From positions 1,472,001-1,536,000 of the forward strand of contig OZ244905.1 in assembly GCA_965221695.1 (NCBI GenBank): a stretch of DNA of 64,000 nt, given 5' to 3'. A program made the translations under genes and the position numbers. This DNA is from Gammaproteobacteria bacterium (GTDB lineage: Bacteria; Pseudomonadota; Gammaproteobacteria; Eutrophobiales; Eutrophobiaceae). Below the pieces are notes generated by a model. The model was not told the DNA's origin. It made no database searches and saw only the letters and a list, made by a program, of their open reading frames with translations. Positions 3,176 to 48,861 of the stretch are shown here, in pieces; the stretch's first letter is position 1, and each line of letters starts with the position of its first letter.

Positions 3176-3858
3176 CTTTTAGGGGCGCCCTTAAGACGTT
3201 CCAGCATCTTGCGGTGCGCAGCCAGTTCTTCCGGGGTTGGCTCCAGTATTTTCAAGGCGGCGCTGCGCTCGACCGAACGCGGCGTCTGTGGGCCCAAACG
3301 CAACCCGGCTTCCTCATCCTCATCCAGCAACAGGCTTGACTGACCGCCGGTCATGGCCAGGTAAACGTCCAGCAATATCTCAGCGTCCAGCAAGGCGCCG
3401 TGCAGGGAGCGACTCGAATTATCTATCCCGTAGCGCTGGCATAACGCATCTAAGCTGTTCCTTTGACCCGGGTGCATTTCTCTGGCCATCACCAGCGTAT
3501 CGGTAACGCGGCAATAATCCTCAAACTTTCCCCATTCGACTCCCAGACGCGTCAACTCGGCATCGATAAACGCCACATCGAACGGCGCGTTATGGATGAT
3601 GACCTCGCTGTCCCGAATAAAGTCAATCAGCGGATCTGCGATATCCTCGAAAACTGGCTCCCCTTCCAGTTGCTGGGCCGTGATGCCGTGTATTTCAACG
3701 GCTTCTTGTTCTATCTCCCGTTCAGGATTGATGAAATAATGCAAGACCCGGTCGGTCTTGCGACGATCCTTCATTTCGACACAGCCGATCTCAATTATCC
3801 GGTGCCCATTGGCGGGTTCCAGTCCCGTAGTCTCAGTATCCAGGATAATCTGACGCAT
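3172..3858 (-). CDS. dnaQ: DNA polymerase III epsilon subunit
   Basis: DTETTG, HNAPFD, HGALLDAEIL exonuclease motifs, MTGGQ linker; next to rnhA. Confidence 0.97.
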   Translation of the reverse strand: MRQIILDTETTGLEPANGHRIIEIGCVEMKDRRKTDRVLHYFINPEREIEQEAVEIHGITAQQLEGEPVFEDIADPLIDFIRDSEVIIHNAPFDVAFIDAELTRLGVEWGKFEDYCRVTDTLVMAREMHPGQRNSLDALCQRYGIDNSSRSLHGALLDAEILLDVYLAMTGGQSSLLLDEDEEAGLRLGPQTPRSVERSAALKILEPTPEELAAHRKMLERLKGAPKS

Positions 3859-3864
3859 TTTTTC

Positions 3865-4317
3865 TCAGCGGGGATGATTTTGCAATAGCTTGTCCATGGC
3901 CTTGTTTGCCAGTGTATCCACCCGTTCATTTTCAGCATGGCCGCTATGACCTTTAACCCAACGCCATTCAATCTCGTGCGACGCCGTCAACTCATCCAAT
4001 CGTTGCCAAAGATCCAGGTTTTTTACCGGACGCTTTTTTTCGGTACGCCAGCCGCGCCGTTTCCAGTTATCCATCCATTGCAGGATACCGTTCCTTACGT
4101 AGTTTGAATCCGTGGTCAAACGTATCCGGCAGGGTTCCTTCAATGCTTCCAGAGCCTTAATCGCCGCGGTCAGTTCCATACGGTTATTAGTGGTTTGCGA
4201 CTCCGCGCCGGACAGTTCTTTTTCCACATCGTTATAACGCAACAGCGCCCCCCAGCCGCCCGGCCCGGGATTGCCGCGGCAGCCACCGTCGGTAAAGATC
4301 TCTATGAATTTGTCCAT
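3865..4317 (-). CDS. rnhA: Ribonuclease HI
   Basis: [38 protein letters not shown]. Confidence 0.98.
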
Positions 4318-4351
4318 GGGTCGCAGTTTGTTGTGATGTCAGCAAGTTGTA

Positions 4352-4380
4352 ACTTAATCAGGGATTCCGAGCTTCCTTAA
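4352..4380. repeat. Partial/degenerate copy of the short palindromic repeat
   Basis: acttaatcagggattcc...cttccttaa resembles the element right end; terminal tta is the stop of the yafS-like gene. Confidence 0.6.
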
Positions 4381-5138
4381 ACTATATCGCCGCCCGACAT
4401 GGTGGCCGCTCCCGGGTTGGCGTCAGGCAGTAATATCCGTTCGCGCCAGTTCAGTTTTATAGGGTCAACAGGGACGCGGCGTTTCTGAGCAATCATCACA
4501 TAAGCCACACCAGGCAGTGACCAGCAGGATGAGAGCAGTTTTTCCAGAAATAATACCCGGCGGAAAAAACCTCTGTGCCTGCGTGGTGAGCGAAAGAAAA
4601 ACCTTTCTACCTGCAACGTTGCAAAACCGAGCATGGATAACCAGCCCTTGAGCTTCCGCGCGCTGTAAAAACAGCCGTCCCACGGCGGCCGATTACGCGC
4701 TGTCGGATTTAGACGCCACAAGCTCCAAGGGCTGAAACCCGCAATGATCAGACGGCCATCTTCGATCAGGACTCGTTCTATTTCCCTCAGAACAGCGTCA
4801 GGGTCGGAAACATACTCCAGCACATGGAGCATGACTACAACGTCAATGCTGCGCGCGGCGAACGGCAATAACGCGGCCTCGGCTGCCAGCGCGCAACCAT
4901 TATGTCGGGGGCTGCCGGCATCCAGACGCAGCTCGATTTTATTCCGGATACGCTTGGCTGAAGCAAGCATTCCACAATCGTATTCACCTATCTGGGCGAT
5001 GTTATACCCGAACAGGTCGGGCAAAATCCTGTCTAATTTTTCCTTTTCATAACTCGCAAGAGCGCTGCCGGCCTCGCTATTGAGCCAGGCGGAAAACCCG
5101 GCTCGGGCACGGGGCGCTGTTGCGGAGGTATTTTCCAT
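4377..5138 (-). CDS. Class I SAM-dependent methyltransferase (YafS-like)
   Basis: LPFAARSIDVVVMLHVLE, LREIERVL, GFSPWSLW; typical position between mltD and rnhA. Confidence 0.85.
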   Translation of the reverse strand: MENTSATAPRARAGFSAWLNSEAGSALASYEKEKLDRILPDLFGYNIAQIGEYDCGMLASAKRIRNKIELRLDAGSPRHNGCALAAEAALLPFAARSIDVVVMLHVLEYVSDPDAVLREIERVLIEDGRLIIAGFSPWSLWRLNPTARNRPPWDGCFYSARKLKGWLSMLGFATLQVERFFFRSPRRHRGFFRRVLFLEKLLSSCWSLPGVAYVMIAQKRRVPVDPIKLNWRERILLPDANPGAATMSGGDIV

Positions 5139-33134: not shown

Positions 33135-33331
33135 ACACATAGCAAGTGTACGGTGAAACCGATCACATAATAAACGACACATCTTCCTCTTAGGTTTAAT
33201 TTCGTGTTTGACAAATCCATTTAAAGAATGGTTAATAGAGTTCAGGCAAAAAGGTAAATATGATCCATCCGATTCACAAAATTTCACATTTCTGATTCCA
33301 TCACCTCCAATCTGTTAATGTGAACTGGCTT

Positions 33332-34072
33332 ATGTACCGGCAACTGGACAGACTCAAACAAAAACTTGATGCGCATCGGCCTTTATCATCTGCTGTGATA
33401 AAGAACCTGCGTGAGGACCTGGTATTGCGTTGGACTTACCACTCCAATGCAATCGAAGGCAATACGCTTACGTTGAAAGAAACCAAAGTAGCATTGGAAG
33501 GCATCACAGTTGGCGGTAAAACCATGCGGGAACACCTCGAGGCGATTAACCACAGGGAAGCGATTTATTTCATCGAGGAATTGGCGCTTCAAAAAAATCC
33601 ACTTACGCAGCGAGACATAAAAAATATTCACCAGTTGATCCTGAAAGGTATTGACGACCGTAATGCCGGCGCCTACCGAAACACCAATGTCATTATCGCC
33701 GGCGCCGACCATACGCCGCCTAATTTTTTGCACGTGATAAGCGAAATGGACCAACTGGCAAGCTGGCATCAAAACGAAGCGCAAAGACTACACCCGGTGG
33801 AAAGAGCAGGCCGCTTGCATGCTGACTTTGTCAGAATTCATCCTTTCATTGATGGCAATGGCAGGACAGCCCGGCTATTGATGAATCTTGAATTGATGCA
33901 AGCAGGCTTTCCTGCTGCAGTTCTGCCTGTAGAAAAACGCTTGGACTATTACGAAACATTGGACGCAGCACATATTCAAAACGACTACCAGCCATTCTTA
34001 TCCTTGATAATTGAAATAGTCGAACTGGGTTTTCAGCCCTACTGGCATGTTTTAAATATTAAGCAGGATTAA
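33332..34072 (+). CDS. Fic family protein with N-terminal inhibitory motif
   Basis: HPFIDGNGRTAR; SNAIEGN. Confidence 0.94.
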   Translation: MYRQLDRLKQKLDAHRPLSSAVIKNLREDLVLRWTYHSNAIEGNTLTLKETKVALEGITVGGKTMREHLEAINHREAIYFIEELALQKNPLTQRDIKNIHQLILKGIDDRNAGAYRNTNVIIAGADHTPPNFLHVISEMDQLASWHQNEAQRLHPVERAGRLHADFVRIHPFIDGNGRTARLLMNLELMQAGFPAAVLPVEKRLDYYETLDAAHIQNDYQPFLSLIIEIVELGFQPYWHVLNIKQD

Positions 34073-34171
34073 GTTAAAACTTCAGATGCTTCACCTTATC
34101 GACTAATCAAAACAACAAGTTACGTGATAGCTTCGAATCCGGCCATCCGCACTAATTTTTACCTTTTTTAT

Positions 34172-34459
34172 TCATTTCAAATCTACGAACACGTTCGGAT
34201 GCTGCTCGGCAATTCGTAGAAGAGCAATAGCCGGGCCCTGCGGCTGTGGCCTTCCTTGTTCCCAGTCCTGCAGGGTACGCAGACTTACCCCAATCATGTC
34301 GGCAAACGCCGATTGTGACAGTTCTAACTTAAAGCGAATGGCTTTTGGTTCTGACGGTGCAGAAAGCCTGGTCGTCTTAAGTTTTACCTTGCCCTTCTTA
34401 TACTCCTGAATTTCTTTAAGGCCCGCGAGTATTTCAGCCCCGATATCACGATTTGTCAT
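34172..34459 (-). CDS. HigA-like Xre/HTH antitoxin
   Basis: LSQSAFADMIGVSLRTLQDWEQGR..P.GPA. Confidence 0.88.
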   Translation of the reverse strand: MTNRDIGAEILAGLKEIQEYKKGKVKLKTTRLSAPSEPKAIRFKLELSQSAFADMIGVSLRTLQDWEQGRPQPQGPAIALLRIAEQHPNVFVDLK

Positions 34460-34685
34460 GTTTAATGGCCTCCGCTATTTTTTTGAGTCTATGGCCGGGG
34501 ATCGTTGAGCGTTCCGATTTGTCATAGAGCGCCAACATCCATATTTCATGTTCAGACGGTTTCCAGTATTAAATCACTCGAACACCGCCACTTTTACCAC
34601 GGCCACTTTGCGCACTGCGTACTTTCCTCACACCACCGGAACCACGGATAAGGTTGCCGGCATCTGGTTTCATCATCAGATAGGA
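34446..34685 (-). pseudogene. HigB/RelE toxin pseudogene (5'-truncated, internal TAA)
   Basis: Manual translation SYLMMKPDAGNLIRGSGGVRKVR..GRGKSGGVRVI*YW..IWMLALYDKSE; TAA at 34569-34571. Confidence 0.88.
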
Positions 34686-35104
34686 TTACTCGGGTGTGCT
34701 GCCAGGAGGCGAAGATATCGATCATACGCGTGTGTCTGGATAGTCAGGCCATTCTCCCAGCGGTTCAAGGAAGCTACACCGATACCTGTTACTTGAGCAA
34801 ATTCCTCCTGAGTCATACCGAATCCTTTTCTGATGTGACGTATATCGTCAGGCGACAGGACGCTAAGATGCCGGCATACCGCTTCGTGTTGTAATCGTTC
34901 GCCTTCATCATCAAGATATACGAAGTCGCAGTCTTTGCATCGGCGAACAGGTACATTCACTGTCAGTTCCACCATGGATTCACCGGACCCATAGTTGAAT
35001 GCGTGGGAGTTCCATGATGTAGTTATGCTCGCGTTGCCACACAGTGCGCATGTGAGTTCCTGCTTTGCTGTAACCAGCCCAGTTGCTGATGGTTTTGGAT
35101 TCAT
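34676..35104 (-). CDS. MqsA-like zinc-ribbon + HTH antitoxin
   Basis: CALC and CKDC ligands, IRHIRKGFGMTQEEFA..LNRWENG; no cognate toxin seen. Confidence 0.82.
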   Translation of the reverse strand: MNPKPSATGLVTAKQELTCALCGNASITTSWNSHAFNYGSGESMVELTVNVPVRRCKDCDFVYLDDEGERLQHEAVCRHLSVLSPDDIRHIRKGFGMTQEEFAQVTGIGVASLNRWENGLTIQTHAYDRYLRLLAAHPSNPI

Positions 35105-35473
35105 TTTAGTTATCTCGTTCAGAGTAGTGAAAACTGCGCCCAATGATCTTCCCGGACCCAAGTTGGAGCTTGATTCTAATCACATGGTAACAATTATCAG
35201 TTAATTCTTGGCTCTATTAAAGTGATCATGGAGTGGCTCTATAGAGGTGCAAACTGACGTTGACTCGGGTTATTCCACTCTCGATAAAACAGCCGAGAAT
35301 AATCGTTTAGTCACACGCTGGAATTTATGGGTGCCCGAAAAAACGCAATTATGAAACTTACCGATTTTCAGGAGATTTGGACTTCACACTTCGGGATCAA
35401 AGTTACGTTGATGAGGCATTACGGAATTCTAACAATATTGTATCCTGCTTAACCCAAGCATAAGCACAGAATA

Positions 35474-36754
35474 TTAGCTCTCGTCACTTTCTAACATATC
35501 AATGGCGATGGCTGTGCAGGTGTCGACTATGGCATCCAATACTATGTGGAGCTTCGCGGAATCATACGGGTTGTCTCGTCCTTTTTGATTTAAGAAGGCT
35601 TTCGTGAATTTCTCTTTATGCTGCAAAATGCCCTGATAATGACCAACTTCCTCAATGTGATTCTTCCATTGCACGAGGGGTTGTAGACCTTCTACGTTAA
35701 GATCGAGATAGCACTCGATAGCAGCAGCCCGTCCATTTATATCGGCCAACTGCTTACCATTGGGTCCTGTCGTCGGGAAAGATTTAAATGCTTTAAGATC
35801 GGGTAACTTCATTGCCCGCATATTCATAGGTAGTGCCATGTGATTCAATTTCCGAACCGCTCTGCTTCCCTCCGCGTCATTATCAAGAAGGAAAACTGTC
35901 CGATTTTGTATATCAATGCTTTTTAGACCTTTGGCGAAATTGACTAAATTACCGGTACCGGAGAACGGATGTCCTTTGTTAAAATCGATAAATTGAAAGA
36001 AGTCTGCAATCTCAGGTCGAAGGAATTTGAAGGCTTTCTCCAAAATATGACTGTCGGAACTACCTTCGGTCGCAATCGAATATCTTTGCCTGCGGCGAGC
36101 CCCTGGACGGAATGCACTTTCTTCAGCCCACCCCGCGTAGACCATGGGGCCATATTGCCAGTCCAGATTCAGGTCTAAGTTTGTAGGATTTTCGGCAAGA
36201 AGCCGCAGCAGAGTATAGGGTTGAAGAAAGTCGACAAGGCTTGCGAAGTAGCTCTTCTCTGAGTGCATCGAATTGTCGTAATAATTACAACTAGGAATAC
36301 GTGAATTCAGCAACTCATCAGTAAAACGTCCTTTGATACGGGTCTCATTATCCTTGGACCAACTTAGGTATGAATCATCCAGATCTTTGATATTGACCGT
36401 ATTCACAAAGCTGAGGAATTCTTCAAATGACATGACTTCGAACCGTAACTTGTCGTAGGATTTAGCTAACTCGCTACGGTACAATTTGGCCATCTGTGTA
36501 TATTCGGCTTCAGCCGTTGCCAAATTGTGGCCTAGCAACTCGAGTCGCGGCAGGACAGTGCTGAGGGGACGGCGAAATCCTAATTCCGGTTCCCCTAGAA
36601 GCGGGCTATCATCTTGATCATCATAGTAATACTGGCCGGACTGAAACTTTTTTCGATCACTAGACTGGAAGAGAAATCCATGATCTGCGCCGCGGTGGTT
36701 CTTTGCATATGTGATCGACATCCCCCCGATTTCAAGACAAATCTCTGTTCCCAT
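35474..36754 (-). CDS. HEPN/Toprim-associated N-terminal domain + Toprim protein
   Basis: MGT..L......KN...HG.LFQ N-terminus; TEGSSD and DND Toprim acidic motifs; AT-richer. Confidence 0.72.
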   Translation of the reverse strand: MGTEICLEIGGMSITYAKNHRGADHGFLFQSSDRKKFQSGQYYYDDQDDSPLLGEPELGFRRPLSTVLPRLELLGHNLATAEAEYTQMAKLYRSELAKSYDKLRFEVMSFEEFLSFVNTVNIKDLDDSYLSWSKDNETRIKGRFTDELLNSRIPSCNYYDNSMHSEKSYFASLVDFLQPYTLLRLLAENPTNLDLNLDWQYGPMVYAGWAEESAFRPGARRRQRYSIATEGSSDSHILEKAFKFLRPEIADFFQFIDFNKGHPFSGTGNLVNFAKGLKSIDIQNRTVFLLDNDAEGSRAVRKLNHMALPMNMRAMKLPDLKAFKSFPTTGPNGKQLADINGRAAAIECYLDLNVEGLQPLVQWKNHIEEVGHYQGILQHKEKFTKAFLNQKGRDNPYDSAKLHIVLDAIVDTCTAIAIDMLESDES

Positions 36755-36942: not shown

Positions 36943-38430
36943 CTAATCTGCCTTCAACCCAGCCAGCACCTCCCGGAAACTGTTAAGTCCGGCTTCAAGG
37001 TTTTCAATGATCTCCTCGGCTAGGTCGTCGGGTTCGGGAAGGTTGTCAAGGTCGGTCAGGCTTTTGTCTTTGAGCCAGAAGATGTCGAGGCTGGTTTTGT
37101 CGCGCGCTTTGATCTTCTCAAGGCTGTAGCTGCGCCAGCGGCCGTCCGGTGCGTCGTTTTCGTGCCAGGTTGCCTTGCGCTCATGCCGGTTCTGTGGGTT
37201 GTAGCACTGGATGAAGTCTGCCAGATCTTCGAATCGCATTGGCTTCTTCTTCAGTGTGTGGTGAATATTGGTGCGGTAATCGTAGTACCAGACTTGTTTG
37301 GTCCAGGGTTCCGGGCTGGCCTCGCGGTTATCGAAGAAAATCACATTAGCCTTCACGCCTTGCGCGTAGAACACACCGGTGGGTAGGCGCAGGATAGTAT
37401 GCAGGTCAGTGTTTTCCAGTAACTTCTGACGAATTGTCTCACCCGCTCCGCCCTCGAACAGTACGTTATCCGGCACAACAATGGCGGCGCGTCCGCTGGT
37501 CTTGAGCATGGTGCGGATGTGCTGCACGAAGTTGAGTTGCTTGTTCGAGGTGCTGGCCCAGAAATCCTGGCGGTTGTAGGTCAGTTGGTCCCGGTCCTGT
37601 TCGCTCTCCTCGTTGGTGAAGGTCATCGAACTTTTCTTGCCGAACGGCGGATTTGCGAGCACATAGTCGAAACGTTTGCCGTTATCGGCCACCAACGAAT
37701 CGTTTGGCGAGACTGGCGCGCCACCGTCGATCTCACCGATGTTGTGCAGGAACATGTTCATCAAACACAGGCGACGCGTGTTGGCAACAATCTCGTTGCC
37801 GTGAAACGCATCGTGCTTCAGAAACGCTTTCTGCGCCTTGTCCAGCATAAAGTTATCCGGGTTGGTCATGAAGTCGTAGGCTGCCAGAAAGAACCCACCT
37901 GTGCCGCAGGCTGGGTCCGCTATCAGTTTGCCGGGTTCGGGCCGCACGCATTCAACCATCGCGCGGATGAGGGCACGCGGTGTGAAATACTGGCCGGCTC
38001 CGGATTTTGTGTCTTCTGCGTTCTTCTCCAACAGCCCTTCGTAGATGTCCCCTTTGATGTCGGCACCCATGGTGACCCACTCGGTGTCGTCAACCATGTC
38101 GATAAGACGGTAGAGTTTCGCCGGGTCTTGAATCTTGTTCTGCGCCTTGGTGAAAATCTGCCCCAGCATACCCGGCCTGGCGCCGAGTTCCCTCAGCAAT
38201 GTGGCATAGTGGCGCTCCAGTTCCGCCCCGTTCCTGGATGTAAGGCTGTGCCAGGCATACTCATCCGGGATGCCGACATCGCGCTGATAGGGCGGTTTGC
38301 CGTACTCATCCGCCATCTTGAGAAAGATCAGATAGGTGAGTTGCTCCAGGTAATCGCCATAGCCCACGCCGTCATCACGCAGGGTGTTGCAGAAGCTCCA
38401 GACTTTGGAGACGATGGGGGCGGCGCTCAT
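36943..38430 (-). CDS. hsdM: Type I R-M methyltransferase subunit
   Basis: GAGQYFTPR, DPACGTGGF, ANPPF. Confidence 0.96.
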   Translation of the reverse strand: MSAAPIVSKVWSFCNTLRDDGVGYGDYLEQLTYLIFLKMADEYGKPPYQRDVGIPDEYAWHSLTSRNGAELERHYATLLRELGARPGMLGQIFTKAQNKIQDPAKLYRLIDMVDDTEWVTMGADIKGDIYEGLLEKNAEDTKSGAGQYFTPRALIRAMVECVRPEPGKLIADPACGTGGFFLAAYDFMTNPDNFMLDKAQKAFLKHDAFHGNEIVANTRRLCLMNMFLHNIGEIDGGAPVSPNDSLVADNGKRFDYVLANPPFGKKSSMTFTNEESEQDRDQLTYNRQDFWASTSNKQLNFVQHIRTMLKTSGRAAIVVPDNVLFEGGAGETIRQKLLENTDLHTILRLPTGVFYAQGVKANVIFFDNREASPEPWTKQVWYYDYRTNIHHTLKKKPMRFEDLADFIQCYNPQNRHERKATWHENDAPDGRWRSYSLEKIKARDKTSLDIFWLKDKSLTDLDNLPEPDDLAEEIIENLEAGLNSFREVLAGLKAD

Positions 38431-39125
38431 ACAGGGAAGCCCTTTGCCTCAATCTGCCGAACTAAGGCATTGCCAGCCTCAGTGCGTCGGTAGCACTGGT
38501 TCTGACTTCTGGGTTTGTCGGGTACGGCCATTTCGATCAGACCGGCATCAAGGGCTGGGCGTAGATATATAGTCCTGAAGTGCTTCCGGTCTTTCAGTTC
38601 CAGTTTTTCCTGCAATTGCCCGCGACTCATGGATTCTGAAAGTGCTGTCACCAGTCTTAAGACATGTCTAGTCACTTGGGGGGTCACTTGGGGGGTCTTT
38701 TGTATATAGGCCTGTTTTATCAGAGACTTATCTTGTTCGGCCACGTGTCCTGTTACTTGTTCGGTATCTTGTAGGGCGACTTGAGGGGTCACTTGGGGTG
38801 TCACTTGTTCGGTCGCGGGCTGTAAAGCCTGCTGATGTACCGGTAGGCACACCCGGAACCAGGTGCGTTCATCGTCGCTCTCGAAGATCGGAGCCGGGGA
38901 GCCGTTCTCCTCGCTCAGAATCACCGGCAACGGACCGCGGACCTCTTTCTCCTTGAACTGTTCTCTGCCTAGCCTATTGGGGAACCACACCACATCGATT
39001 TGCCTCGTCAGTAAGAATTTGTGTAGTTGGTCGTTGAAAAATAACAACACGACATTCTTCGGGAACAGGGCTTCGGGCGGCCTGCCAACGATGTCTAGGT
39101 TCCGGTCGATAAGCGTATCCGTCAT
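38427..39125 (-). pseudogene. C-terminal remnant of AlbA_2/HATPase/HTH regulator-like gene with internal deletion
   Basis: PKNVVLLFF..QIDVVWFP joined directly to NGSPAPIFESDDER, TPQV repeats, PDKPRSQNQCY end. Confidence 0.7.
38670..38815 (-). repeat. 12-bp coding repeats (TPQV/TEQV)
   Basis: Recurrent gtcacttggggg / gtcacttgttcg units. Confidence 0.75.
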
Positions 39126-40096
39126 CGTAGCTCCTCTGGCAGTTCGATACCATTCTTGACGAAAAATTCCTTGATTATGTCGTCACCCGATGCCACGCTA
39201 AAGCTGTGAATTTGAACCCCTCCTCCACTGCTCAAGGCGTTAACAGCGTCAAAGAAATTATTCTCATTCAGCCAGTCATACCTCTTGCTAGCCAAGCTTT
39301 CCCAAGTCTTCGTCAATGACCACTCTATCAACTCAGGCTCGGCCGACTGCTCCTCGCCACCGACCAGAATTGGGCCTGGAGCGACATAGCGCCCGTTTTG
39401 TTCCTTTACCTGTGCGCCCCACAAAGATATGATTTTTGTGGACAGGGAATCAGTCGCTTTACCACCAGGCGGCGGATGTATCCCAGACCTGTGTGAAGCC
39501 ACCTTGTTTCTCCATGCCCGCAATGGCTTTGCTTCGGGTATTGATTTAGTGTACTCCCGCGCACGAGATTTAATTTTCTCCATACCATCTTTGCAGAAAG
39601 CAAAATCCTCATAGTTTCCCTCACGCGCCAAAGTATCCAGCAAGCTGACGCCTTCCATGAGATTCAGCATACTCACGCTGAACCAGTCGAACTTGACAGC
39701 TAGATGCGCATAGATGCTATTGACATCGAAATCATGACAGCTATTAGGGTCGCTCGGCAACTTACATTCGAGATTCCTTACTTCTTGATATAGGGAATGA
39801 AGACCGGTACGCAAAACCGCTACATTGCGAACAAAGTTACTGGAATTTTTAAAGTGAGCAATCTTTCCCGGCGGCCAATCCGCCTTGTCCAGTACGACAA
39901 ATCCAAGTTTACTTAGGGCGGCCTCTAATGCCTCTTCTCTCGTTCGTGCCTTCGCGATCACTTCTTTATTCTTCTCCTGTTCAATATAAACAATCCATTC
40001 TATAGGTTCGTCTTCCGAGGGAATCGGTTCCCAACGAAGAATTGTGTCTGCTGTGTGCATGATGTGTTTTAATTCAATGAACTTTGCAACAATCAA
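39122..40096 (-). CDS. Hypothetical protein, candidate HEPN ribonuclease
   Basis: Intact AT-richer ORF; RNKVASH fits R-x4-6-H; start TTG 40096 or ATG 40060. Confidence 0.65.
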
Positions 40097-40296
40097 GGCG
40101 CATGAACGAGAGTCGCCGAGTCTGCAACGCCCAACACGATGTAACCGCCGCCGAGGTTATGGAAATCGTTTGCGAAAGCGCAGATGGTGTGTAACACGCT
40201 GGCCGGATTCCAGCCTGCCTTGTACTCAATCCGCTCTCCCTCAATGCTGCGCTGGTGCAGTAGGTGGTCGATGTTGATGGGAAGTTCGTTGCTCAT
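40093..40296 (-). pseudogene. N-terminal remnant of AlbA_2 (Schlafen-like) gene
   Basis: [22 protein letters not shown]...GGGYIVLGV then abrupt end. Confidence 0.8.
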
Positions 40297-41849
40297 ACCG
40301 TCGCCGCTTTAGGTTGGCGTCTCTTACCAGTTTTGCCTTTTGATTGTGCCATTTTCTCTGCTCGAATCCGTTCCAGCAGCACAGACGCCGGTTCGTCGTT
40401 GGGGTCTTGCGGGACCAGTTGGCCGGAGAAGGCTTTTTTTAGGATGGATTGGCGGAGGGTATCTATATAACTGAGAGTCCCTATAATTTTCCGTTCCTGC
40501 GCGTCAAGAGTCGTTAGGATATTATCAATCCGCCGACAAAGCACTTCTTGTTCCTCCAACGGAATCAGTGGCACAGGAAACTTGCTAAGAACTGTTTTAT
40601 TGATCGAAGCAAGATTCGTTGTCTGTTTACCTACCTTTTCGAAATATCGCTGTCCAAATGCGTTAGCCCAGTAGGACAGAAGTTTCGAGTTGAATTCTGA
40701 CGTTATATGTGGAGTTGCTCTGAAAACGTGATTTTGGGTTATACACGGCACAATTTCAGACTGCCAAATCCAACCTCGGCCAAGTTTGTCCCGATCTCCT
40801 CCTTCGTTAAATAGTATATCCCACTTCTTGAGTTGAAGAGCGGCAAGCTGGGATTTCTCTATTCTCATATGCTTGATTTCGGAAAGATCGAGAACTCCTC
40901 GTTGCACGTTCGCCACCCGCAAGTAGGGAACTTCCATCGGATCTTTGAACTTTCGTCTAGCACTGACCGACATTCCTGAACCTATTTCCGCAACTTGGCA
41001 AAGACGTACGAGATACCAACTTTCGGGTGTATTTGGTAGCTCGTATTTTTCCTGAGAAGCTATTTCTGTGGTTGTCGTCACTCTGTTCGGTTTTGTTGGC
41101 TTCTTGATTGAATCTCCTTCTGCTTTCCACTCTCTAACAGCAACCCTCCATTCCTCAAGTTGCCGCTCATAGTGGGCTTCCCGCTCCCGCTTGATGCGAG
41201 CGAGCAATTGCTCGGGTGTTTCGAGTTTGCCCTTGTTCTTCTTACGCCAATCCGCGGTGAGCTTGCCTTCAAAGGCGTGTTTGAGTACGGCCTGACGGTA
41301 GACTGCAAGCTGCGCTCGTGCCGTCTTCAGGCTTTCAATGCCCTTGTCCAGCTCGGAAAAGAGTTCCTCGATCTTGGCGATGATCCGATTTTGTTCAAGC
41401 AACGGTGGTAAATGAAGCTCGAAACTTTCAATTAACGCCTTAGTAATGGCCTTGAATGTCGAGCCTGTCCCTTTTCCTGATATATCAGGCTCTGCACTTC
41501 TGAATAGATACAGCAGGAACTTCGGCTCAATTCCCCCAAGGGGGTGAAGTGCTGCTAATCCTCGACCAATGCAGCACTCGTGTTGCACCAGATTAGTTGG
41601 TCCAACGGGAGCTCGAACCGACAGTAGCGTTGCGCCTGGTTTGGCCACCTTATTGGGCTTTGAACAATACAGGTTGACGGTTGGGGATAGATCGCCGAAT
41701 TCCGCCTTCCCCTGAAAGAAAGGAAGGCCATCCCCGTTACGGTTATAGGTCCTGGAAGAGGGGGACTGGCCCATCACGATGTGCGTGAAATCGATAAGAA
41801 TGCATCGTTGCCATCCCTTAGGGACTGTGTTCTTTACGAAATCGGTCAT
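40293..41849 (-). CDS. hsdS: Type I R-M specificity subunit
   Basis: Two TRDs with conserved [10 protein letters not shown] and IPLEEQ regions, [14 protein letters not shown]. Confidence 0.95.
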
Positions 41850-41856
41850 TTATATC

Positions 41857-41906
41857 GCCAACGCCTCATTCAACTCATTAATTTCACTATCCATCCGACC
41901 CCCGAA
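41857..41906 (-). repeat. Diverged duplicate of the hsdR 3' end
   Basis: 43/50 identical to 42825-42874; FGGRMDSEINELNEALA vs FGDRMDSVIDEMNEALA. Confidence 0.9.
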
Positions 41907-41985
41907 ATTCTGACACTTCCGATCTATGCTTCCATTGAAATAGACCCGCGAGGCATGAAACCGCGAGTTCGTATTAACATGAAGG

Positions 41986-42014
41986 TTGCAAACATTGCGG
42001 CATTGCCGCATAAT
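41986..42014 (+). promoter_or_regulatory. TA promoter with palindromic operator
   Basis: TTGCAA, 17 nt, CATAAT; perfect tgcggca-t-tgccgca at 41996-42010. Confidence 0.7.
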
Positions 42015-42023
42015 TGACAGTTC

Positions 42024-42353
42024 ATGCATTTGTACTTTACTCGAGCTTATGAACGCGCCATTAGCAAATTGCTCTCGCCACCGGCCCGAGGTGAAATGGA
42101 ATCGGCAATTATGTCCGCTCCCGATTCGGCGCCCGTTATTCGGGGGACAGGCGGCATCCGCAAGCTGCGATGGGCGGGTTCCGGTCGCGGCAAGCGAGGT
42201 GGCATCCGCGTAATCTACTTCTACCCTGGTCCCGAAGCGATTTATATGCTGACGGCATATGCGAAGGCAGAGCGCGAAGATTTGTCGGCAGCGGATATGA
42301 AGGTGTTGTCCAAGCAGGTGGCAGAAATCAAAAAAGAGAGGCGAAAACGATGA
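42024..42353 (+). CDS. HigB/RelE family toxin
   Basis: IRGTGGIRKLRW..GRGKRGGIRVIYF..LTAYAK. Confidence 0.92.
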   Translation: MHLYFTRAYERAISKLLSPPARGEMESAIMSAPDSAPVIRGTGGIRKLRWAGSGRGKRGGIRVIYFYPGPEAIYMLTAYAKAEREDLSAADMKVLSKQVAEIKKERRKR

Positions 42354-42691
42354 ATGAACGCACCAAGATCGGTCAGGAGATTGAAGCGGCCCTCGGCGAG
42401 GTGCTGGCTCATGTGCGCGGCGAGGCTGTGCTGGCTTGCCGGATTGTAGATGACCCCAGTGCCGCGCGGATTGTTGCGCTGCGTAAACGATTGAAGCTGA
42501 GCCGGCAGAAGTTCGCGGACCGATTTGGCCTTGATGTGCGCGCTGTGCAGGACTGGGAGCAGGGCCGACGGGTTCCGGAACGGGCTGCACGCGTCTTGCT
42601 GACCGTGATTGACCATGATCCGGATTCGGTTGCGCGTGCGCTCGCCGCAGGGGCAACAAAGCCCGGGGATGCCCAAATTGCGGCTCAGTGA
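42350..42691 (+). CDS. HigA-like HTH antitoxin
   Basis: ATGA overlap with toxin; LSRQKFADRFGL..VQDWEQGRR.P. Confidence 0.9.
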   Translation: MNERTKIGQEIEAALGEVLAHVRGEAVLACRIVDDPSAARIVALRKRLKLSRQKFADRFGLDVRAVQDWEQGRRVPERAARVLLTVIDHDPDSVARALAAGATKPGDAQIAAQ

Positions 42692-42707
42692 AGGCTGAGC
42701 TGGCACT

Positions 42708-42819
42708 AAGGTAAAAGGAAGAAGGAGGAAGGAAGAAACGCGCGTTGAAATCAACGCGCGGCCTTTCGCTTCGCATTGTCCTTGTTACTTCTGCCTTTAT
42801 CCTTCTACCTTTTTCCTTC
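42708..42819. repeat. Inverted arrays of 7-bp AAGGNNN repeats forming a long hairpin
   Basis: aaggtaa aaggaag aaggagg aaggaag on +; aaggaaa aaggtag aaggata aaggcag on -; inner cgcgcgttga-aa-tcaacgcgcg. Confidence 0.8.
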
Positions 42820-45583
42820 ACGCTGCCAACGCCTCATTCATCTCATCAATCACACTATCCATCCGGTCTCCGAACAGCTCGTACATCCGACCCCGGCCGC
42901 CTTTGGCATCGAACGGCGTCATTTCGAGGTCGTTCTTATCCAAGTGGAACGAAGTGATGATATGTTCGCGAATCATGCGCAACCAATCCATCTGTTCTTC
43001 GTTGAACTTTTCACCGGCGCCGCTGTGGTGCGTCATAATCCAGGTCTGGAAGTTGCGGCGTACGGTTTCTGCATAAGTCGACAATCTGGCATCAATGCCG
43101 CAGACGCGACGAATCAATGCCATAAGCGCTGTTAATTCGGTAACCGGCTGGGAACCTTTATATTCGTCAAGAAGTTCATATGCCTGCCATACGCGCAACG
43201 GCGCCAGCTTGGGCCGGTCGCGCTTTAACCGGTCCAAGACTTCCCGGATCATCGCGTAGGTCAACTCTCGTCGGCGATAGGGCTGGGAGAAGAAAATCGT
43301 CAGCGCTTCAATCTCATCGCGGTTGGCTTCCAGGTATTGCCGGAAGTCCTCCACCATACTCTTCGCATTCTCGTGCGCGGCATCTGCCCATCCGGCGCTG
43401 AGCAAGGTATCCGGGTTGTCGTGGTCGATGGTCTGTTCTTTGTCCCGGCGAATTGAGTCGATCAATTGGATCAGTTTACCGTTGAATACCTTGGCTGCTT
43501 CGTTCACCAACTGTTCCTGGGCCTGTACGCGCACTGCCTCCGTTGGCTCAGCGTCATTCGCCACCGGTTTTATCTCGCGGGCTTTCTCCTCGATTCTGTC
43601 CGGGTCTATCGCGGCCAGCAGATCGCTGACGATCCGGGTGAGTTCGATGCCCCCGGCTTGCGCCGTGATCTTTTCTTTCTCGGCCGGATCGAGTTGCTGA
43701 TTCAGCCGCGCGAGACGGCCGGCCAGCGAACTCACCGTTTCTTCGTCGCGCGCGCCCATCATCACATTCATTGCAAGGTCTTTGAGTGGAACAGTAGGCT
43801 TGGTGTCCAGCGGTTGGCTGGCCGTTTTCACTGATTTGGTTACCCCGACCGCGTCAACGATCACATAGTGGGTCTTTGCGCTGGTAGCGGAGGGTGAGAC
43901 TTTCTTGAGATCGTCATGATCGAGGGTACGCGTGCCCCGGCCCTTCATCTGCTCGAAGTAATTACGGCTCTTGACATCGCGCATGAACAGCAGGCATTCG
44001 AGCGGTTTTACATTGGTGCCGGTGGCAATCATGTCCACGGTCACGGCGATACGCGGGTTATAATCATTGCGAAGCTGACTGAGGACCGTCTTGGGATCGT
44101 CATCGATCCGGTAGGTGACTTTCTTGCAAAAGGCATTACCTTCACCGAACTCTTCCCGCACGGTCTGGATAATGTCATCGGCGTGGCTGTCGGTCTTGGC
44201 GAAGATCAGCGTCTTCGGGATCTCTTTGCGGACCGGAAAGATTTCCGGCAATTTGTCGCGAAACGTCTTGATCACCAAGCGAATCTGGTCGGGGTTGACA
44301 ACGCTGCGGTCGAGTTGCCTGGTGTCATAGGTCTCGTCCTCGTCCTGGGTCTCCCAGCGCTTGCGTCTTGACAGGCGCTCACGCTTCTCGACGAGCTGCT
44401 CCGCCTTGAGTTGACCGCCGTGTTTCGTCACCTCCGTGTCGATGACATAGATTTCGTTGCCCACATTGACGCCGTCGGCAACGGCCTGCTCGTGGGTATA
44501 CTCACTGACAACATTCTGCTTGAAGAATCCGAAAGTGCGGTTATCTGGCGTTGCGGTCAAACCGATAAGATAAGCGTCGAAATATTCTAGTACCTGAAGC
44601 CAGAGATTATAGATGGAGCGGTGGCATTCGTCGATGACGATGAAATCGAAGAACTCCGGTGGAATCTTCGCGTTATAGTCTACTGTTTGGGGTTGTTTAG
44701 GCTGTACCCTCTCCGCCGGGTTGGACTCCTCGGTGGCTTCGTCGAATTCCTGGCCTTTAAGCAGTGAATACATTCTCTGGATGGTACTGATGCAGACCTG
44801 ACTGTCCTTGGCCACAAAGGATGATTTCAATCGTTGGACGTTATAAAGTTCTGTGAACTTGCGGTTGTCGTCGCTCGGCACATAAGCCATGAATTCCTGC
44901 TCGGCCTGTTCGCCCAGATTCCGGGTGTCCACAAGAAAGAGGATGCGTTTGGCGCCGGCATGTTTAAGCAACCGGTAGATCGACGTGACCGCAGTGTAGG
45001 TCTTACCTGAACCGGTGGCCATCTGAATAAGGGCGCGGGGACGGTCTTCCTTGAATGAGGTTTCCAATTTCTGAATGGCGTTGAATTGGCATGTTCTGAG
45101 TCCCCCAGGGTCCAACTCTGGCAGGCTGTGAAACCGGGCGCGCAGCGTGTCCGATTGTGCGTACCAGTCCCGTAGCGTCTCTGGTCGAAAAAAGCTGAAT
45201 GCTTCGCGGGAACGGGGGTGTGGATCGCGCTTATCGGTAAAGCGTGTGAGTACCCCTGTGCTCTCGTACACAAAAGTCATGGGTTCTTTGTTGTTAAACC
45301 ACTTGAGCCTGGCGTTGGCATAAGTGGCGGATTGTTCTTCAACCTTGGTTAGCTTGTGGCCGTAGTATTTCGGTTTGGCCTCGATAATGCCAACGGGTTT
45401 TTTGTCGATCAACAGCGCGTAGTCAGCGGGGCCAACATCTGTCGGATACTCGCGAACAGCAATCCCGGAGCCTGCGCTGAAGTCGATTTCATTCTTTGAT
45501 TGCACCTTCCAACCGGCCTGTTCCAGCTTGTCATCAATGACCTCGCGGGCCTGCTGTTCGGGGGTTCGGTTTCCTTCACTCAT
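42818..45583 (-). CDS. hsdR: Type I R-M restriction subunit (EcoEI-like C-terminus)
   Basis: PADY..IEAK nuclease motif, MATGSGKT, DECH, TATP, QMKGRGTR. Confidence 0.95.
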   Translation of the reverse strand: MSEGNRTPEQQAREVIDDKLEQAGWKVQSKNEIDFSAGSGIAVREYPTDVGPADYALLIDKKPVGIIEAKPKYYGHKLTKVEEQSATYANARLKWFNNKEPMTFVYESTGVLTRFTDKRDPHPRSREAFSFFRPETLRDWYAQSDTLRARFHSLPELDPGGLRTCQFNAIQKLETSFKEDRPRALIQMATGSGKTYTAVTSIYRLLKHAGAKRILFLVDTRNLGEQAEQEFMAYVPSDDNRKFTELYNVQRLKSSFVAKDSQVCISTIQRMYSLLKGQEFDEATEESNPAERVQPKQPQTVDYNAKIPPEFFDFIVIDECHRSIYNLWLQVLEYFDAYLIGLTATPDNRTFGFFKQNVVSEYTHEQAVADGVNVGNEIYVIDTEVTKHGGQLKAEQLVEKRERLSRRKRWETQDEDETYDTRQLDRSVVNPDQIRLVIKTFRDKLPEIFPVRKEIPKTLIFAKTDSHADDIIQTVREEFGEGNAFCKKVTYRIDDDPKTVLSQLRNDYNPRIAVTVDMIATGTNVKPLECLLFMRDVKSRNYFEQMKGRGTRTLDHDDLKKVSPSATSAKTHYVIVDAVGVTKSVKTASQPLDTKPTVPLKDLAMNVMMGARDEETVSSLAGRLARLNQQLDPAEKEKITAQAGGIELTRIVSDLLAAIDPDRIEEKAREIKPVANDAEPTEAVRVQAQEQLVNEAAKVFNGKLIQLIDSIRRDKEQTIDHDNPDTLLSAGWADAAHENAKSMVEDFRQYLEANRDEIEALTIFFSQPYRRRELTYAMIREVLDRLKRDRPKLAPLRVWQAYELLDEYKGSQPVTELTALMALIRRVCGIDARLSTYAETVRRNFQTWIMTHHSGAGEKFNEEQMDWLRMIREHIITSFHLDKNDLEMTPFDAKGGRGRMYELFGDRMDSVIDEMNEALAA

Positions 45584-45651: not shown

Positions 45652-47490
45652 TCAGCGGGTCACGTTTCCTACCGGTTGGCTCAGGGCGTCGGCTACCAGT
45701 TCGTCTACGTTGCTGCCGGTGAGGGAGTTCAGAAATGCGACGATGGCATCCATCTCAGCGTTGTTCAGACCCAGTGGTTGGATCAAGGGGTCGAGCAACG
45801 CATTTTTTATGCCGCCGCGGTTGTAGAACTCGACCACCTGGCGCAGGGTTCGCAGTGAACCGTTGTGCATGTACGGGGCGCTGAGGGCCACGTTGCGCAA
45901 CATCGGTGTCCTGTATTTCCAGCGGTCGTCGGGGTTGCCGGTAATCTCGTAATAACCGAGGTCGTTGGGAGCCGGCTTGCCCTTGAGAGTGATGAACTCC
46001 CGGTCGACCATAAGCGTGACGCCGGGCGCCACCGTCACCGGCACTTTGTCATCCGGTGTTCCCATGGAAACCAGGTAACCGATGCCGGTGTTATGCAGAC
46101 CGTGGTCGGTGAACAGCGCGTAATCCCTGTTGACGGTATGGCACGCGACGCAGCGCGCCTTGCCGGTAAACAGGTCGAAGCCGGCTCTTGCCTGTTCATC
46201 CAACGCAGCTTTCTCGCCGCCGTAATACCAGCGATCAAACGCGCTGCCCGCCGAGCTCAGGGTGCGCTGGTAGCTGGCCAGGGCCATGCCCACGGTCTCC
46301 ATGCCAGGCCCTCTCCCATCAAAAGCCTGTGCAAACTTGCCTTGATATTCAGGCAGGGATTTCAGCCGGTCGATGACAAAACCGACGGACGGGTTGGCCA
46401 TTTCGTTGCGCGCCAGCAGCGGTGTCCAGACCTGTTGTTCCAGCAGGTTCTCGCGGGCGTCATGGAACAGCTTTTGGGCAAAGCCGACGTTATACAGCGT
46501 TGGCGCATTGCGGCGCAGGGTTCGGCCTTCAATACCGATGGCGACCGACAGTTCCTGGCTGGTGAAACCCTGTTCCGGGATATGGCACATCGCACAGGAG
46601 AGCGTGTTGTTATGCGACAGGCGCCGGTCGAAAAACAGTTGCCGGCCGAGCAGTATCTTTTCCTGTGTCAGCGGGTTGTTATTCGGGACCTCAAGCAGGG
46701 GCAGGCCGGACAGCGCCCCCTCACCTGACGCGCCGCCACTTGCCCTGCCCTCCGCTGCACTGGACGCTGCCTCTGTCGCCGCGCCTAAGCTGTGATCGCC
46801 ACTTTCGATGGCCAGGGTGATGATGTCGTTGATCACCGTGTCTGCATGCAGGAACGATACGCTGTAGATGTTGCGCACCTGTTTTTGCTTGTCCAGCAGG
46901 AACACCCGCAGGATGTGCGAAATCACTCCGGTGTATTTTCCGGTCTCGTCGTATTCCTTGTTCACCGACTGGTTGTAACCCCGGAGCATGGGCTGCAAGC
47001 GCGCCGTTGAAGCTGTGGTCAGGAAGCGCCAGTCATAGTTGTTCCGGTTGAACTGTCTACCGTACTTCAGCATCACCTGCGGCGTGTCGAAATCCGGATC
47101 GAAGCTGAGGCTGATCATCCGCACCTGATCCTCAAGACGGCTGTCCGCATCCAATCGCTGTTGTAACTGCCCCAAGACGAAGGTGGCCAGCGGACACCCG
47201 TTGACATCGTTGCAACTGGTAAAGATGAAGCTGAGGACGACGAACTTGTCGCCAAAGAACTCGTGCAGGGGGCGTTCACGCCCTGTTTCGTCCAGCACCA
47301 GGCCGTCGCCGGCCTTGCCTAACGGGGGGAGCTGGTAGGTGCCCGGTTCCGGCGCGTCGTATTCGAGCACGCGGTAGCCCGGCGCCAGGATCTGCGCCGG
47401 CGCGTCATGCTGATGTTGTGCCTGGGCGCGCGGCGCTACTACGGGGTAGAGACAAAGAACGCCGACTACCAGTAAAAGGAGCGCCCTCAC
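45652..47490 (-). CDS. SCO/SenC domain + MauG-like diheme peroxidase fusion (MTO maturation)
   Basis: Signal peptide, SCO-like CNDVNGC...H, heme motifs CAMCH and CVACH, APYMHNG; follows mtoX. Confidence 0.88.
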   Translation of the reverse strand: MRALLLLVVGVLCLYPVVAPRAQAQHQHDAPAQILAPGYRVLEYDAPEPGTYQLPPLGKAGDGLVLDETGRERPLHEFFGDKFVVLSFIFTSCNDVNGCPLATFVLGQLQQRLDADSRLEDQVRMISLSFDPDFDTPQVMLKYGRQFNRNNYDWRFLTTASTARLQPMLRGYNQSVNKEYDETGKYTGVISHILRVFLLDKQKQVRNIYSVSFLHADTVINDIITLAIESGDHSLGAATEAASSAAEGRASGGASGEGALSGLPLLEVPNNNPLTQEKILLGRQLFFDRRLSHNNTLSCAMCHIPEQGFTSQELSVAIGIEGRTLRRNAPTLYNVGFAQKLFHDARENLLEQQVWTPLLARNEMANPSVGFVIDRLKSLPEYQGKFAQAFDGRGPGMETVGMALASYQRTLSSAGSAFDRWYYGGEKAALDEQARAGFDLFTGKARCVACHTVNRDYALFTDHGLHNTGIGYLVSMGTPDDKVPVTVAPGVTLMVDREFITLKGKPAPNDLGYYEITGNPDDRWKYRTPMLRNVALSAPYMHNGSLRTLRQVVEFYNRGGIKNALLDPLIQPLGLNNAEMDAIVAFLNSLTGSNVDELVADALSQPVGNVTR

Positions 47491-47493
47491 CCG

Positions 47494-48861
47494 TTAGAAG
47501 TTAACCGCCACGGATACCGCTTGATCCTCTCCGGCGGGCCGGCGTTTTGCATACAGTGCATAAGAGCCGAAGCGCATCTGGTGGGGCATGCCCAGTCCTG
47601 CCTCAATGAAATCGATGGAGAACTGCAGGTTCAGCTTCTCCCCGTCCCAGGTGTAGGACTTGAAATATTGCAGGTCCTCGCCTTCCTCGGCCTGCCGTTT
47701 GTCCCAGTTGGACAGCAAGGAGGAGGTGAAGTAAACCCGTTTCCCGTCCCAGCTCTGGGACAGCATATTGATCTGGGCGCCGATCTTCTCTGCGAAGATT
47801 TCCTTTGCGTTATGCGGATCGCTGATATCGAATACCCGGGCCATGCCGTCGTTCCAGGTGTCCACCCATAACAGCGAATCATCCGCCGAAATGGAAATAT
47901 CCACGGGCAGCGGAATCTGCTCGGCCACGCCGATGTCCGCAACCGGCTTCGCTTGCCAGTCGCCGCCGTCATCCTCGTAGATCAGCCAGATCTTGGATGT
48001 GAGCGCAGTGGTCGTGAAGCAGTAATTATTGCGCGAGCCCCAGGCGCAGCGAATTTCCAGCGGCGCTCCGGGCACGTCCAGCACCTTTTTCGGCTGGCGT
48101 TTGTGCAGGTCCCAGATGACCACGGTATTGCCGAACCGCTGCATCGCCTCCGGGTCCGCCATCATTTGGCCCAGGTCCATCATGTAATTGTTCCAGCCGG
48201 TAAATGAGGACGTGACCATCACGTTGCGGCGCGGCAGCACGCGCAGGTCATAACCATAGCCATCGGCGAAAGTGCCGGACTTGACCGCGCCTTGCAGGTC
48301 GGCGTCGGTAGGCATCCAGTAAGTGGCAACGTAATCGCCTTCGTTGGTGTATTCCACTATCCCGGTCACGCCACCGTGATCCTTGTCATTCGACAAGCCG
48401 GTAATAAGCATCCTGCCGGGCATCGCATAACTGGTGTGCGGCCCGACCACGCCGCCGCTGCGGGCGACAAAATCTTCGATGGTCTTGTGCAGCCTGGGTT
48501 GGGCCGGGTCTGAATGCACATCGAAGATAAAAATCCTGTTGGTGTCGAGCCCGGACGCCCACAGGTAGCGCCGGTCATCCGTCAGGCCCGAATGGTGAGC
48601 TTCATTACGCCCGCCCACCGATAAAACGTGAACCACCTCGCCGTATTTTTCCGACTGCGGGTTGACGTCCACGGTAACCAGTTTGTCCTGTTCATCACCT
48701 AGACCCTCCATGCCCAGCGTCCAGATATAGACGAAATCCTCCTGTCCGACGATTTTCGCCATGTACGGCGACATACAGGTCTCATCGGCGGAAGCAAGCG
48801 GCGTGATTGACAGCAGGAAAAGAAAGACAATAAAATAAGCGGTGCCGGTAAGTTGTCTCAT
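47494..48861 (-). CDS. mtoX: Methanethiol oxidase (SBP56 family)
   Basis: Signal peptide then DETCMSPY, EAHH, GPH, FTGW and LLSNWD Trp motifs, PHQM; SCO/MauG neighbour. Confidence 0.9.
   Translation of the reverse strand: MRQLTGTAYFIVFLFLLSITPLASADETCMSPYMAKIVGQEDFVYIWTLGMEGLGDEQDKLVTVDVNPQSEKYGEVVHVLSVGGRNEAHHSGLTDDRRYLWASGLDTNRIFIFDVHSDPAQPRLHKTIEDFVARSGGVVGPHTSYAMPGRMLITGLSNDKDHGGVTGIVEYTNEGDYVATYWMPTDADLQGAVKSGTFADGYGYDLRVLPRRNVMVTSSFTGWNNYMMDLGQMMADPEAMQRFGNTVVIWDLHKRQPKKVLDVPGAPLEIRCAWGSRNNYCFTTTALTSKIWLIYEDDGGDWQAKPVADIGVAEQIPLPVDISISADDSLLWVDTWNDGMARVFDISDPHNAKEIFAEKIGAQINMLSQSWDGKRVYFTSSLLSNWDKRQAEEGEDLQYFKSYTWDGEKLNLQFSIDFIEAGLGMPHQMRFGSYALYAKRRPAGEDQAVSVAVNF

Follow-up and report, generated by a model that had tools for sequence, protein, structure and literature searches.

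We report a 323-codon open reading frame (ORF) that is a real and probably selected feature of a type I restriction-modification (R-M) operon in a 64,000-nucleotide stretch of DNA (hereafter, the window) from a Gammaproteobacteria bacterium (contig OZ244905.1, positions 1,472,001 to 1,536,000). Between hsdR and hsdS, both on the minus strand, lies a toxin-antitoxin (TA) pair on the plus strand, and the ORF, which we call the bridge, runs antisense through this pair from the hsdR stop to the hsdS start. The explanation that we favor, and hold to be reasonably likely, is that the bridge is a filler frame kept open by selection, likely keeping ribosomes on the hsd mRNA across the inverted TA pair.

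Results

Anatomy of the bridge in the window

42818..45583, minus strand: hsdR, type I R subunit (EcoEI_R_C/ResIII); its longest ORF runs from 45649 and its likely start is 45583
41850..42821, minus strand (read 42821→41850): bridge (filler) ORF, 323 aa, GTG start, without Pfam or NCBIfam family
42699..42830, minus strand: long hairpin (-56.6 kcal/mol, z -5.1) with a purine-rich heptamer arm and a pyrimidine-rich arm; the bridge GTG lies at its base
42729..42760, minus strand: intrinsic-terminator-like 9-bp stem with a U/C-rich tail, 60-90 nt past the hsdR stop
42707..42777, minus strand: remnant of an older hsdS allele, from the end of its first recognition domain, which aligns to the intact hsdS of relatives L016 and L178
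42350..42691, plus strand: HTH_3 antitoxin, 113 aa, PF01381 above cut-off
42024..42353, plus strand: RelE-family toxin, 109 aa, PF06296 above cut-off; its gene overlaps the antitoxin gene
41986..42014, plus strand: promoter-like site of the TA pair with a palindromic operator of 15 nt (41996-42010) that is conserved in relatives
41940..41983, minus strand: promoter-tail junction, 33 nt longer (in frame) than in relatives G008, L016, L135 and L177
41850..41950, minus strand: degenerate copy of the hsdR 3' end (the tail copy; 94 nt, 72% identical)
40293..41849, minus strand: hsdS, 518 aa (Methylase_S), which begins right behind the bridge stop

An earlier note on this DNA had described a 323-codon antisense ORF from the hsdR stop to the hsdS start, open across a hairpin, both TA genes in their different frames and their promoter, and ending in a copy of the hsdR tail. 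We confirmed this course and located both junctions: The bridge GTG shares 4 nt with the hsdR TGA, and the bridge TAA immediately adjoins the hsdS ATG at 41849 in the same frame. The bridge frame is free of stops over the hairpin, antitoxin, toxin, TA promoter and tail copy, while the remaining two minus frames contain 18 and 8 stops over the region and the plus-strand reading of 41850..42821 is full of them. It is antisense to the toxin codon-to-codon and to the antitoxin with an offset of one base. Two elements had been overlooked in the earlier note: the 5' hsdS remnant, and a 14-codon mini-ORF in the tail copy, which starts at an internal ATG at 41894, finishes at the hsdS start and would be able to couple hsdS alone.

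The TA pair, which we take to be HigBA-like, has the features of a predicted type II system, with the RelE-family toxin gene first, the HTH_3 antitoxin gene overlapping it and a palindromic operator in the promoter; MqsA models matched the pair below cut-off only. Its promoter-like site is directed toward hsdR. The purine-rich arm of the hairpin is a relic of a four-helix-bundle element that is still present in L016. The terminator-like stem is perfect in the window and G008 only, and since 2 such sites were found against 1.7 expected, it is weak evidence alone. Contig pieces of runs X1 and X2 (from two studies, one possibly the source) tile the region with few differences, which makes an assembly error unlikely, although no single piece spans it.

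A single frame links hsdR to hsdS in relatives with intact operons

The inverted-TA element was found in ten loci, with a lowest identity of 81%. Four operons (the window, G008, L016 and G556/L186) have intact hsdR, hsdS and hsdM, and in each of them a single frame leads from the upstream gene to the hsdS start; hsdR and hsdS are full-length and hsdM is open in each, that of L016 reaching the locus edge. The congener G008 carries the same insertion, 97% identical, and its frame of 312 aa ends in a 4-nt overlap onto another hsdS; the tail has strongly diverged from that of the window, and the promoter-tail junction is 33 nt shorter. In L016, where the TA pair has 82% nucleotide identity, the frame is 323 aa and stops 9 nt ahead of hsdS. 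A four-helix-bundle gene (TIGR02436) follows hsdR there, and the bridge ATGs lie 47 and 35 nt before the stop of this gene; in G546 (L178), a relative without the TA pair, hsdS starts at the same ATGs. In G556 (L186), the 5' spacer is a different one, the toxin has lost 219 nt and the junction is shorter by 42 nt, yet a single 231-aa frame extends from a GTG overlapping the hsdR stop to hsdS, with which it shares 4 nt. The junction spacings are thus -4/0 in the window, -4/-4 in G008 and G556, and -47 or -35 and +9 in L016; these are the short overlaps of termination-reinitiation coupling, with L016 looser.

Of additional note, the TIGR02436 gene of L016 (5785-6192), after hsdR, has purine-rich heptamer arms. 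The hsdS of the same locus (3243-4850) opens with 19 codons copied from the four-helix-bundle gene and also carries an in-frame, complementary stretch rich in pyrimidines.

The link is broken in relatives with damaged operons

The link is broken in all four informative damaged loci (L176, L177, L179 and L180). L176 has an internal deletion in hsdR, and the ATG that overlaps the hsdR stop there is not in the bridge frame. L177 is an orphan TA pair with tail (no hsd genes in 9 kb), and a stop lies within its antitoxin part. In L179, hsdS is split by an opposite-strand insertion carrying a 563-aa ORF, presumably a group II intron protein; two deletions fuse into the bridge frame, and a third breaks the frame and leaves a gap of about 20 nt. 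The toxin deletion of L180 is out of frame. Loci L135-137, which represent one metagenome lineage with hsdR mostly gone, are open over the TA pair and tail, but have lost the 5' link with hsdR and so are uninformative for it, and L183 consists of an antitoxin piece only. The difference between intact (4/4 unbroken) and damaged loci (0/4) gives a Fisher p = 0.029, unchanged after merging the two congeners; such figures are somewhat overstated, because kin are not independent.

Length changes are in frame

All six length changes among the intact operons are in frame: +33, -42 and 18 nt, the loss of 219 nt from the toxin, and two 5' links that are independent of each other. With one in three as the null, p = 0.0014, or 0.004 if the toxin deletion is omitted. 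With the damaged loci added, 8 of 11 changes are in frame (p = 0.009), a count that omits the 5' ends of L135 and L177, where the upstream gene is gone. When deletions of 1-2 nt were simulated, the window, G008 and L016 (about 250 deletions each) never kept a single bridging ORF; L186 kept one in 79 of 178, and its indels weigh less because a second frame is partly open there.

Homologous TA pairs outside the element are rarely open

We compared the element with 80 homologous TA pairs outside it, 74 of which have the same junction; only 6 of the 74 are open across both genes. By GC content, 0/37 control pairs are open at GC ≤0.64 and 6/38 above it, and the element clade has a GC content of 0.58-0.63. 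The six open controls have GC 0.66-0.70, with no shared operon context among the matches listed. Control pairs in related host genomes, which partly overlap the larger control set, gave 0/11 open, and both paralogous TA pairs of the window's own genome are closed.

The bridge product shows no constraint over the TA part

Over the TA pair, the bridge frame has a nonsynonymous divergence (pN) of 0.195 vs a synonymous divergence (pS) of 0.139. The TA genes themselves have diverged between the window and L016 by synonymous values of 0.41 and 0.49, on a par with the 0.41 and 0.42 of controls. In the tail, comparing the window with G008 gives pN 0.42 and pS 0.41 for the first 20 codons, which are nevertheless stop-free (chance of no stop 0.5-0.6 each), while the last 15 codons, beside hsdS, are constrained (pN 0.20, pS 0.52). 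Purifying selection on the bridge amino acids was not detected, and with pN≥pS over the TA part, the impression in the earlier note of a non-functional protein holds good. No homologue was found among 1350 candidates, which were searched at near lengths only, tblastn confirmed no relative among 149 metagenome stretches, and the exact bridge sequence was absent from the protein collection searched. An AlphaFold model has a mean predicted local distance difference test (pLDDT) score of 37, weak evidence because it was built from a single sequence. The L016 version has a weak EcoEI_R_C match, below cut-off. Taking these comparisons together, the openness of the bridge is retained and its amino-acid sequence is not; the protein appears irrelevant.

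How often chance gives such a frame

The earlier note had cautioned that antisense ORFs arise by chance, and rightly so: The genome contains 750 antisense shadow ORFs of at least 200 codons (a count based on a dicodon gene model), and a crude count gives 145 of at least 323 aa. Only 4 of the 750 are coupled to an upstream stop and 7 to a downstream start, and the only one coupled at both ends is the bridge ORF. The synonymous shuffling of the TA genes that the same note had proposed left both genes open in 3.3% of resamplings with genome codon usage and in 16% when their own codons are permuted. The promoter spacer was open in 46% of shuffles, the right spacer in 14%. Among single changes silent for the TA pair, 24 of 506 shut the bridge frame. 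Stop codons are depleted in the bridge frame relative to the null, modestly so from substitutions alone; the value of 0.11 for the window-G008 antitoxin comparison is inflated, its null being blind to mutation distance, and we used empirical no-gain rates instead. As for the junctions, about 23 of 35 related loci have their hsdR stop and hsdS start no more than 4 nt apart by our own count, which was made without genome G075 (L131). Since the hsdR tail usually overlaps hsdS in relatives, both end junctions of the bridge are inherited with the tail and hence cheap. With these chance estimates and cheap junctions, one locus cannot decide the matter, but relatives can.

Origin of the bridge and of its tail copy

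Judging from alignments, the bridge is a chimera of the hsdS remnant with one extra base, the antisense TA pair and the hsdR tail. The extra base, near 42744, is common to the window, L016 and L176 and brings the hsdS frame into register with the open one; if it were absent, hsdS would read on into a 170-codon frame ending inside the toxin. From these alignments, we propose that the TA pair was inserted backwards within hsdS, and that a copy of the hsdR tail together with a fresh downstream hsdS then restored the R-M system. The old hsdS would have been reduced to a stub, which one extra base joined to the only stop-free antisense frame, and tails and hsdS alleles would have been exchanged later.

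Between the window (42024-42691) and G008, pS is 0.012 for the toxin, 0.20 for the antitoxin, 0.10 for hsdR and about 0.4 for the tail. This mosaic suggests recent recombination, with the TA pair as a possible crossover site for hsdS exchange.

A copied hsdR tail also stands before hsdS behind same-strand cargo in L252, L253, L255, L256, L207, L119 and L120. Those tails usually form the end of a short ORF that overlaps hsdS by 4 nt, and L256 has three tail copies. The hsdR-hsdS junctions of L181, L182 and L193 contain same-strand remnants and a GC-rich hairpin repeat under short overlapping ORFs that lead toward the tail; L185, whose hsdM is frameshifted, is without a start of this short-ORF kind. 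A pattern search of viral contigs gave 0 matches, and a plasmid search returned 4 records, each with one hsdR tail. A chain of short ORFs over an inverted antitoxin-like gene in L254 was not counted as evidence.

The hsd operon and its neighbors

38427..40296, minus strand: Schlafen/AlbA-Fic-like cargo gene in 67-aa and 232-aa pieces, split by a 324-aa ORF; 4-nt overlaps join all
36943..38430, minus strand: hsdM, 495 aa (N6_Mtase/HsdM_N)

By Pfam, hsdR, hsdS and hsdM are all intact in the window, as expected of a type I R-M system. The six junctions from hsdR to hsdM are all -4 or 0 nt, an unbroken chain that runs through the broken cargo pieces too. The 324-aa ORF inside the cargo gene has no Pfam or NCBIfam family and belongs to a cluster of 4. 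In G008, the last piece of the cargo gene is frameshifted, with a short gap ahead of the next possible start. Directly upstream of hsdR on the same strand are an SBP56-family gene and an SCO-cytochrome c peroxidase fusion (45652-48861). These genes lie about 70 nt from the likely hsdR start, so that the hsd operon may receive read-through from them. Downstream, a low-GC, defence-type cluster (33320-36754) contains another RelE/HTH-like TA pair, accompanied by an additional HTH gene, as well as genes for a Fic protein and a HEPN/Toprim-N protein.

Discussion

Based on our findings, we propose how the bridge would work. Ribosomes finishing hsdR would restart at the overlapping GTG at the base of the hairpin, which the terminating ribosome would have opened. 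They would then translate roughly 1 kb of antisense RNA that would otherwise be bare, shielding it from Rho and from the terminator-like hairpin. The ribosomes would stop in the tail copy, restart on hsdS and follow the chain of 4-nt overlaps to hsdM. The setting fits this proposal: Rho is present in 5/5 genomes tested, hsdR and hsdS usually adjoin in related loci, and the junctions from hsdR to hsdM are all tight. The polarity to be averted may be due to Rho or to the terminator, and an antisense effect on the TA mRNA may also arise. Since the tail ATG has its own Shine-Dalgarno (SD) sequence and short tail couplers occur elsewhere, the need for the long frame more probably lies in countering polarity than in coupling by itself. 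The suggestion in the earlier note that the frame is kept open across the inverted insertion is supported by the intact operons (4/4 unbroken), their length changes (6/6 in frame), the damaged loci (4/4 broken), the rarity of openness among control pairs and the lack of constraint on the protein.

Several observations weigh against this proposal. The 5' link of L016 is an overlap of 35-47 nt without an SD, looser than tight coupling needs. In the window, the tail ATG at 41894 has a good SD of its own (-9.5 kcal/mol), so that the coupling of hsdS need not rest on the long frame. The toxin deletion of L186 is possibly in frame for the antitoxin's own coupling, and no stop has yet appeared across the TA part in L135, L176 and L180, although these loci are damaged. 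The window and G008 have a slight excess of C over G, a hallmark of Rho sites, and L016 and L186 show none overall. EcoKI is described in PMC12707154 as having a separate promoter for hsdM-hsdS, and a similar promoter here, if present, would undercut the model. An independent inverted ParDE insertion in L128 (1738-2266, between hsdR and a tail copy) is crossed by two ORFs of 111 and 135 aa. We had considered this insertion (genome G427) as a second case and dropped it, as 53% of codon permutations give the same two-ORF relay; as to generality beyond one insertion, the one independent inverted insertion compared is no better than the null.

It is also conceivable, although we think it unlikely, that the frame happened to be open when the element was formed and has not yet decayed, hsdS being served by the 14-codon mini-ORF and a promoter of its own. 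The hsd-linked TA copies are one clade from one insertion, and because of this single origin our tests rest on few events. Control pairs lack a new stop in 22% of cases at 78-86% identity, the divergence in question, and in 69-83% at 93-99%; by our own product, substitutions alone give only about 0.1, which is weak evidence for selection. Five of the six open control pairs form one clade in a different context, so openness can be inherited without the hsd genes. Both end junctions would come with the hsdR tail, whose ATG has an SD, and tail copies are short couplers before hsdS in four loci with same-strand cargo (L252, L253, L255 and L207). What such an origin does not explain well is that all the length changes in intact operons are in frame and that breaks occur in damaged ones only. 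The absence of open pairs among the 37 GC-matched controls also argues against it, as does, more weakly, the scan of 41700-43100 for a minus-strand sigma-70-like site, a weak scan that found none.

Less probable still is a regulatory switch, in which the locus would be an attenuator or an excludon arm and transcription of hsdS-hsdM would pass the hairpin only during hsdR translation; derepression of the TA pair would then lower S and M by way of head-on transcription and pairing of the RNAs. The GTG at the base of a stable hairpin that holds a terminator-like stem and a U-tract is consistent with this, as are the TA promoter facing hsdR and a layout that matches the noncontiguous operons described in PMC7154746. 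However, the frame is kept in L016 despite an imperfect terminator stem, and in G556 despite a replaced hairpin region; the hairpin arms, moreover, are accounted for as relics of the four-helix-bundle element and of hsdS. That the bridge is an overprinted gene with an acting protein, such as an HsdR C-terminal peptide competing in R-M assembly, is very improbable: The avoidance of stops, the somewhat constrained last 15 codons and the sub-cut-off EcoEI_R_C match of the L016 version would fit it, but pN≥pS over the TA part, a length that varies from 231 to 323 aa, a replaced N-terminus, the lack of a family or homologue and, weakly, the low pLDDT of a single-sequence model speak against it.

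The filler frame that we favor would combine known parts in a new way. Noncontiguous operons, or excludons, are known from Staphylococcus aureus, where menE-menC-MW1733-ytkD-MW1731 is the example given in PMC7154746 and PMC11034616; reciprocal control by polymerase collision and RNase III is a further feature of such operons. As there, co-oriented operon genes are split by opposite-strand genes (here, toxin and antitoxin on the plus strand, hsdR and hsdS on the minus strand), and the read-through mRNA would be antisense to the inserted genes. The spanning region in S. aureus is described as untranslated, and its survival is ascribed to the runaway transcription of Gram-positive bacteria; here, a coupled open frame, which may be translated, spans the insertion in hosts with Rho, and would do so on a putative co-transcript. 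Translational coupling needs overlaps or very short gaps, as stated in PMC10666635, and this distance rule fits three of the four intact operons well and L016 less. Rho polarity on untranslated RNA and ORFs that merely deliver ribosomes are both established (PMC12548453). The -4 and 0 nt junctions between complex subunits, with a hand-over independent of the product, resemble termination-reinitiation and ribosome-delivering upstream ORFs as these sources present them, but the bridge differs in being a relay of 231-323 codons within an operon and antisense through two real genes in different frames. The antisense overlapping genes olg1 and olg2 of Pseudomonas aeruginosa are translated and show a constraint by codon position that was read as protein function, as reported in PMC8850804. 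Like them, the bridge is a long antisense ORF over annotated genes in which stop codons are avoided; unlike them, it has unconstrained amino acids, crosses two genes and spacers, and is coupled at both ends to operon genes. Finally, the gene order hsdR(EcoEI_R_C)-hsdS-cargo-hsdM, its domains and the recurrent cargo with a copied hsdR tail at the R/S junction are those of type I R-M loci, in most of which the cargo lies on the operon strand, unlike the inverted cargo with a full-length bridge in the window. Among the papers listed by searches of the open-access literature, we found no description of a selected filler frame across an inverted insertion.

The atlas of noncontiguous operons (PMC11034616) poses the puzzle of how transcription can continue where the RNA opposite an inverted gene is not translated, and the answer given there is limited to Gram-positive bacteria with runaway transcription. 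A selected junk frame would be a concrete and easily tested answer for hosts with Rho. As a tentative and still doubtful generalization, Rho-bearing bacteria might tolerate backwards insertions in operons by evolving a sacrificial antisense frame through them; if true, the escape of noncontiguous operons from polarity in Gram-negative bacteria would have a general explanation that can be searched for in genomes. A selected junk frame would also caution the overlapping-gene field that depletion of antisense stop codons can reflect ribosome traffic and not protein selection. For the R-M systems themselves, the finding suggests a reason why type I loci gather cargo at the hsdR/hsdS junction along with a copied hsdR tail. 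If the generalization above is true, the silent codon choice and later indels of the inserted genes would be constrained by a second, meaningless frame, and R-M expression would be placed under the head-on transcription of the inserted TA pair.

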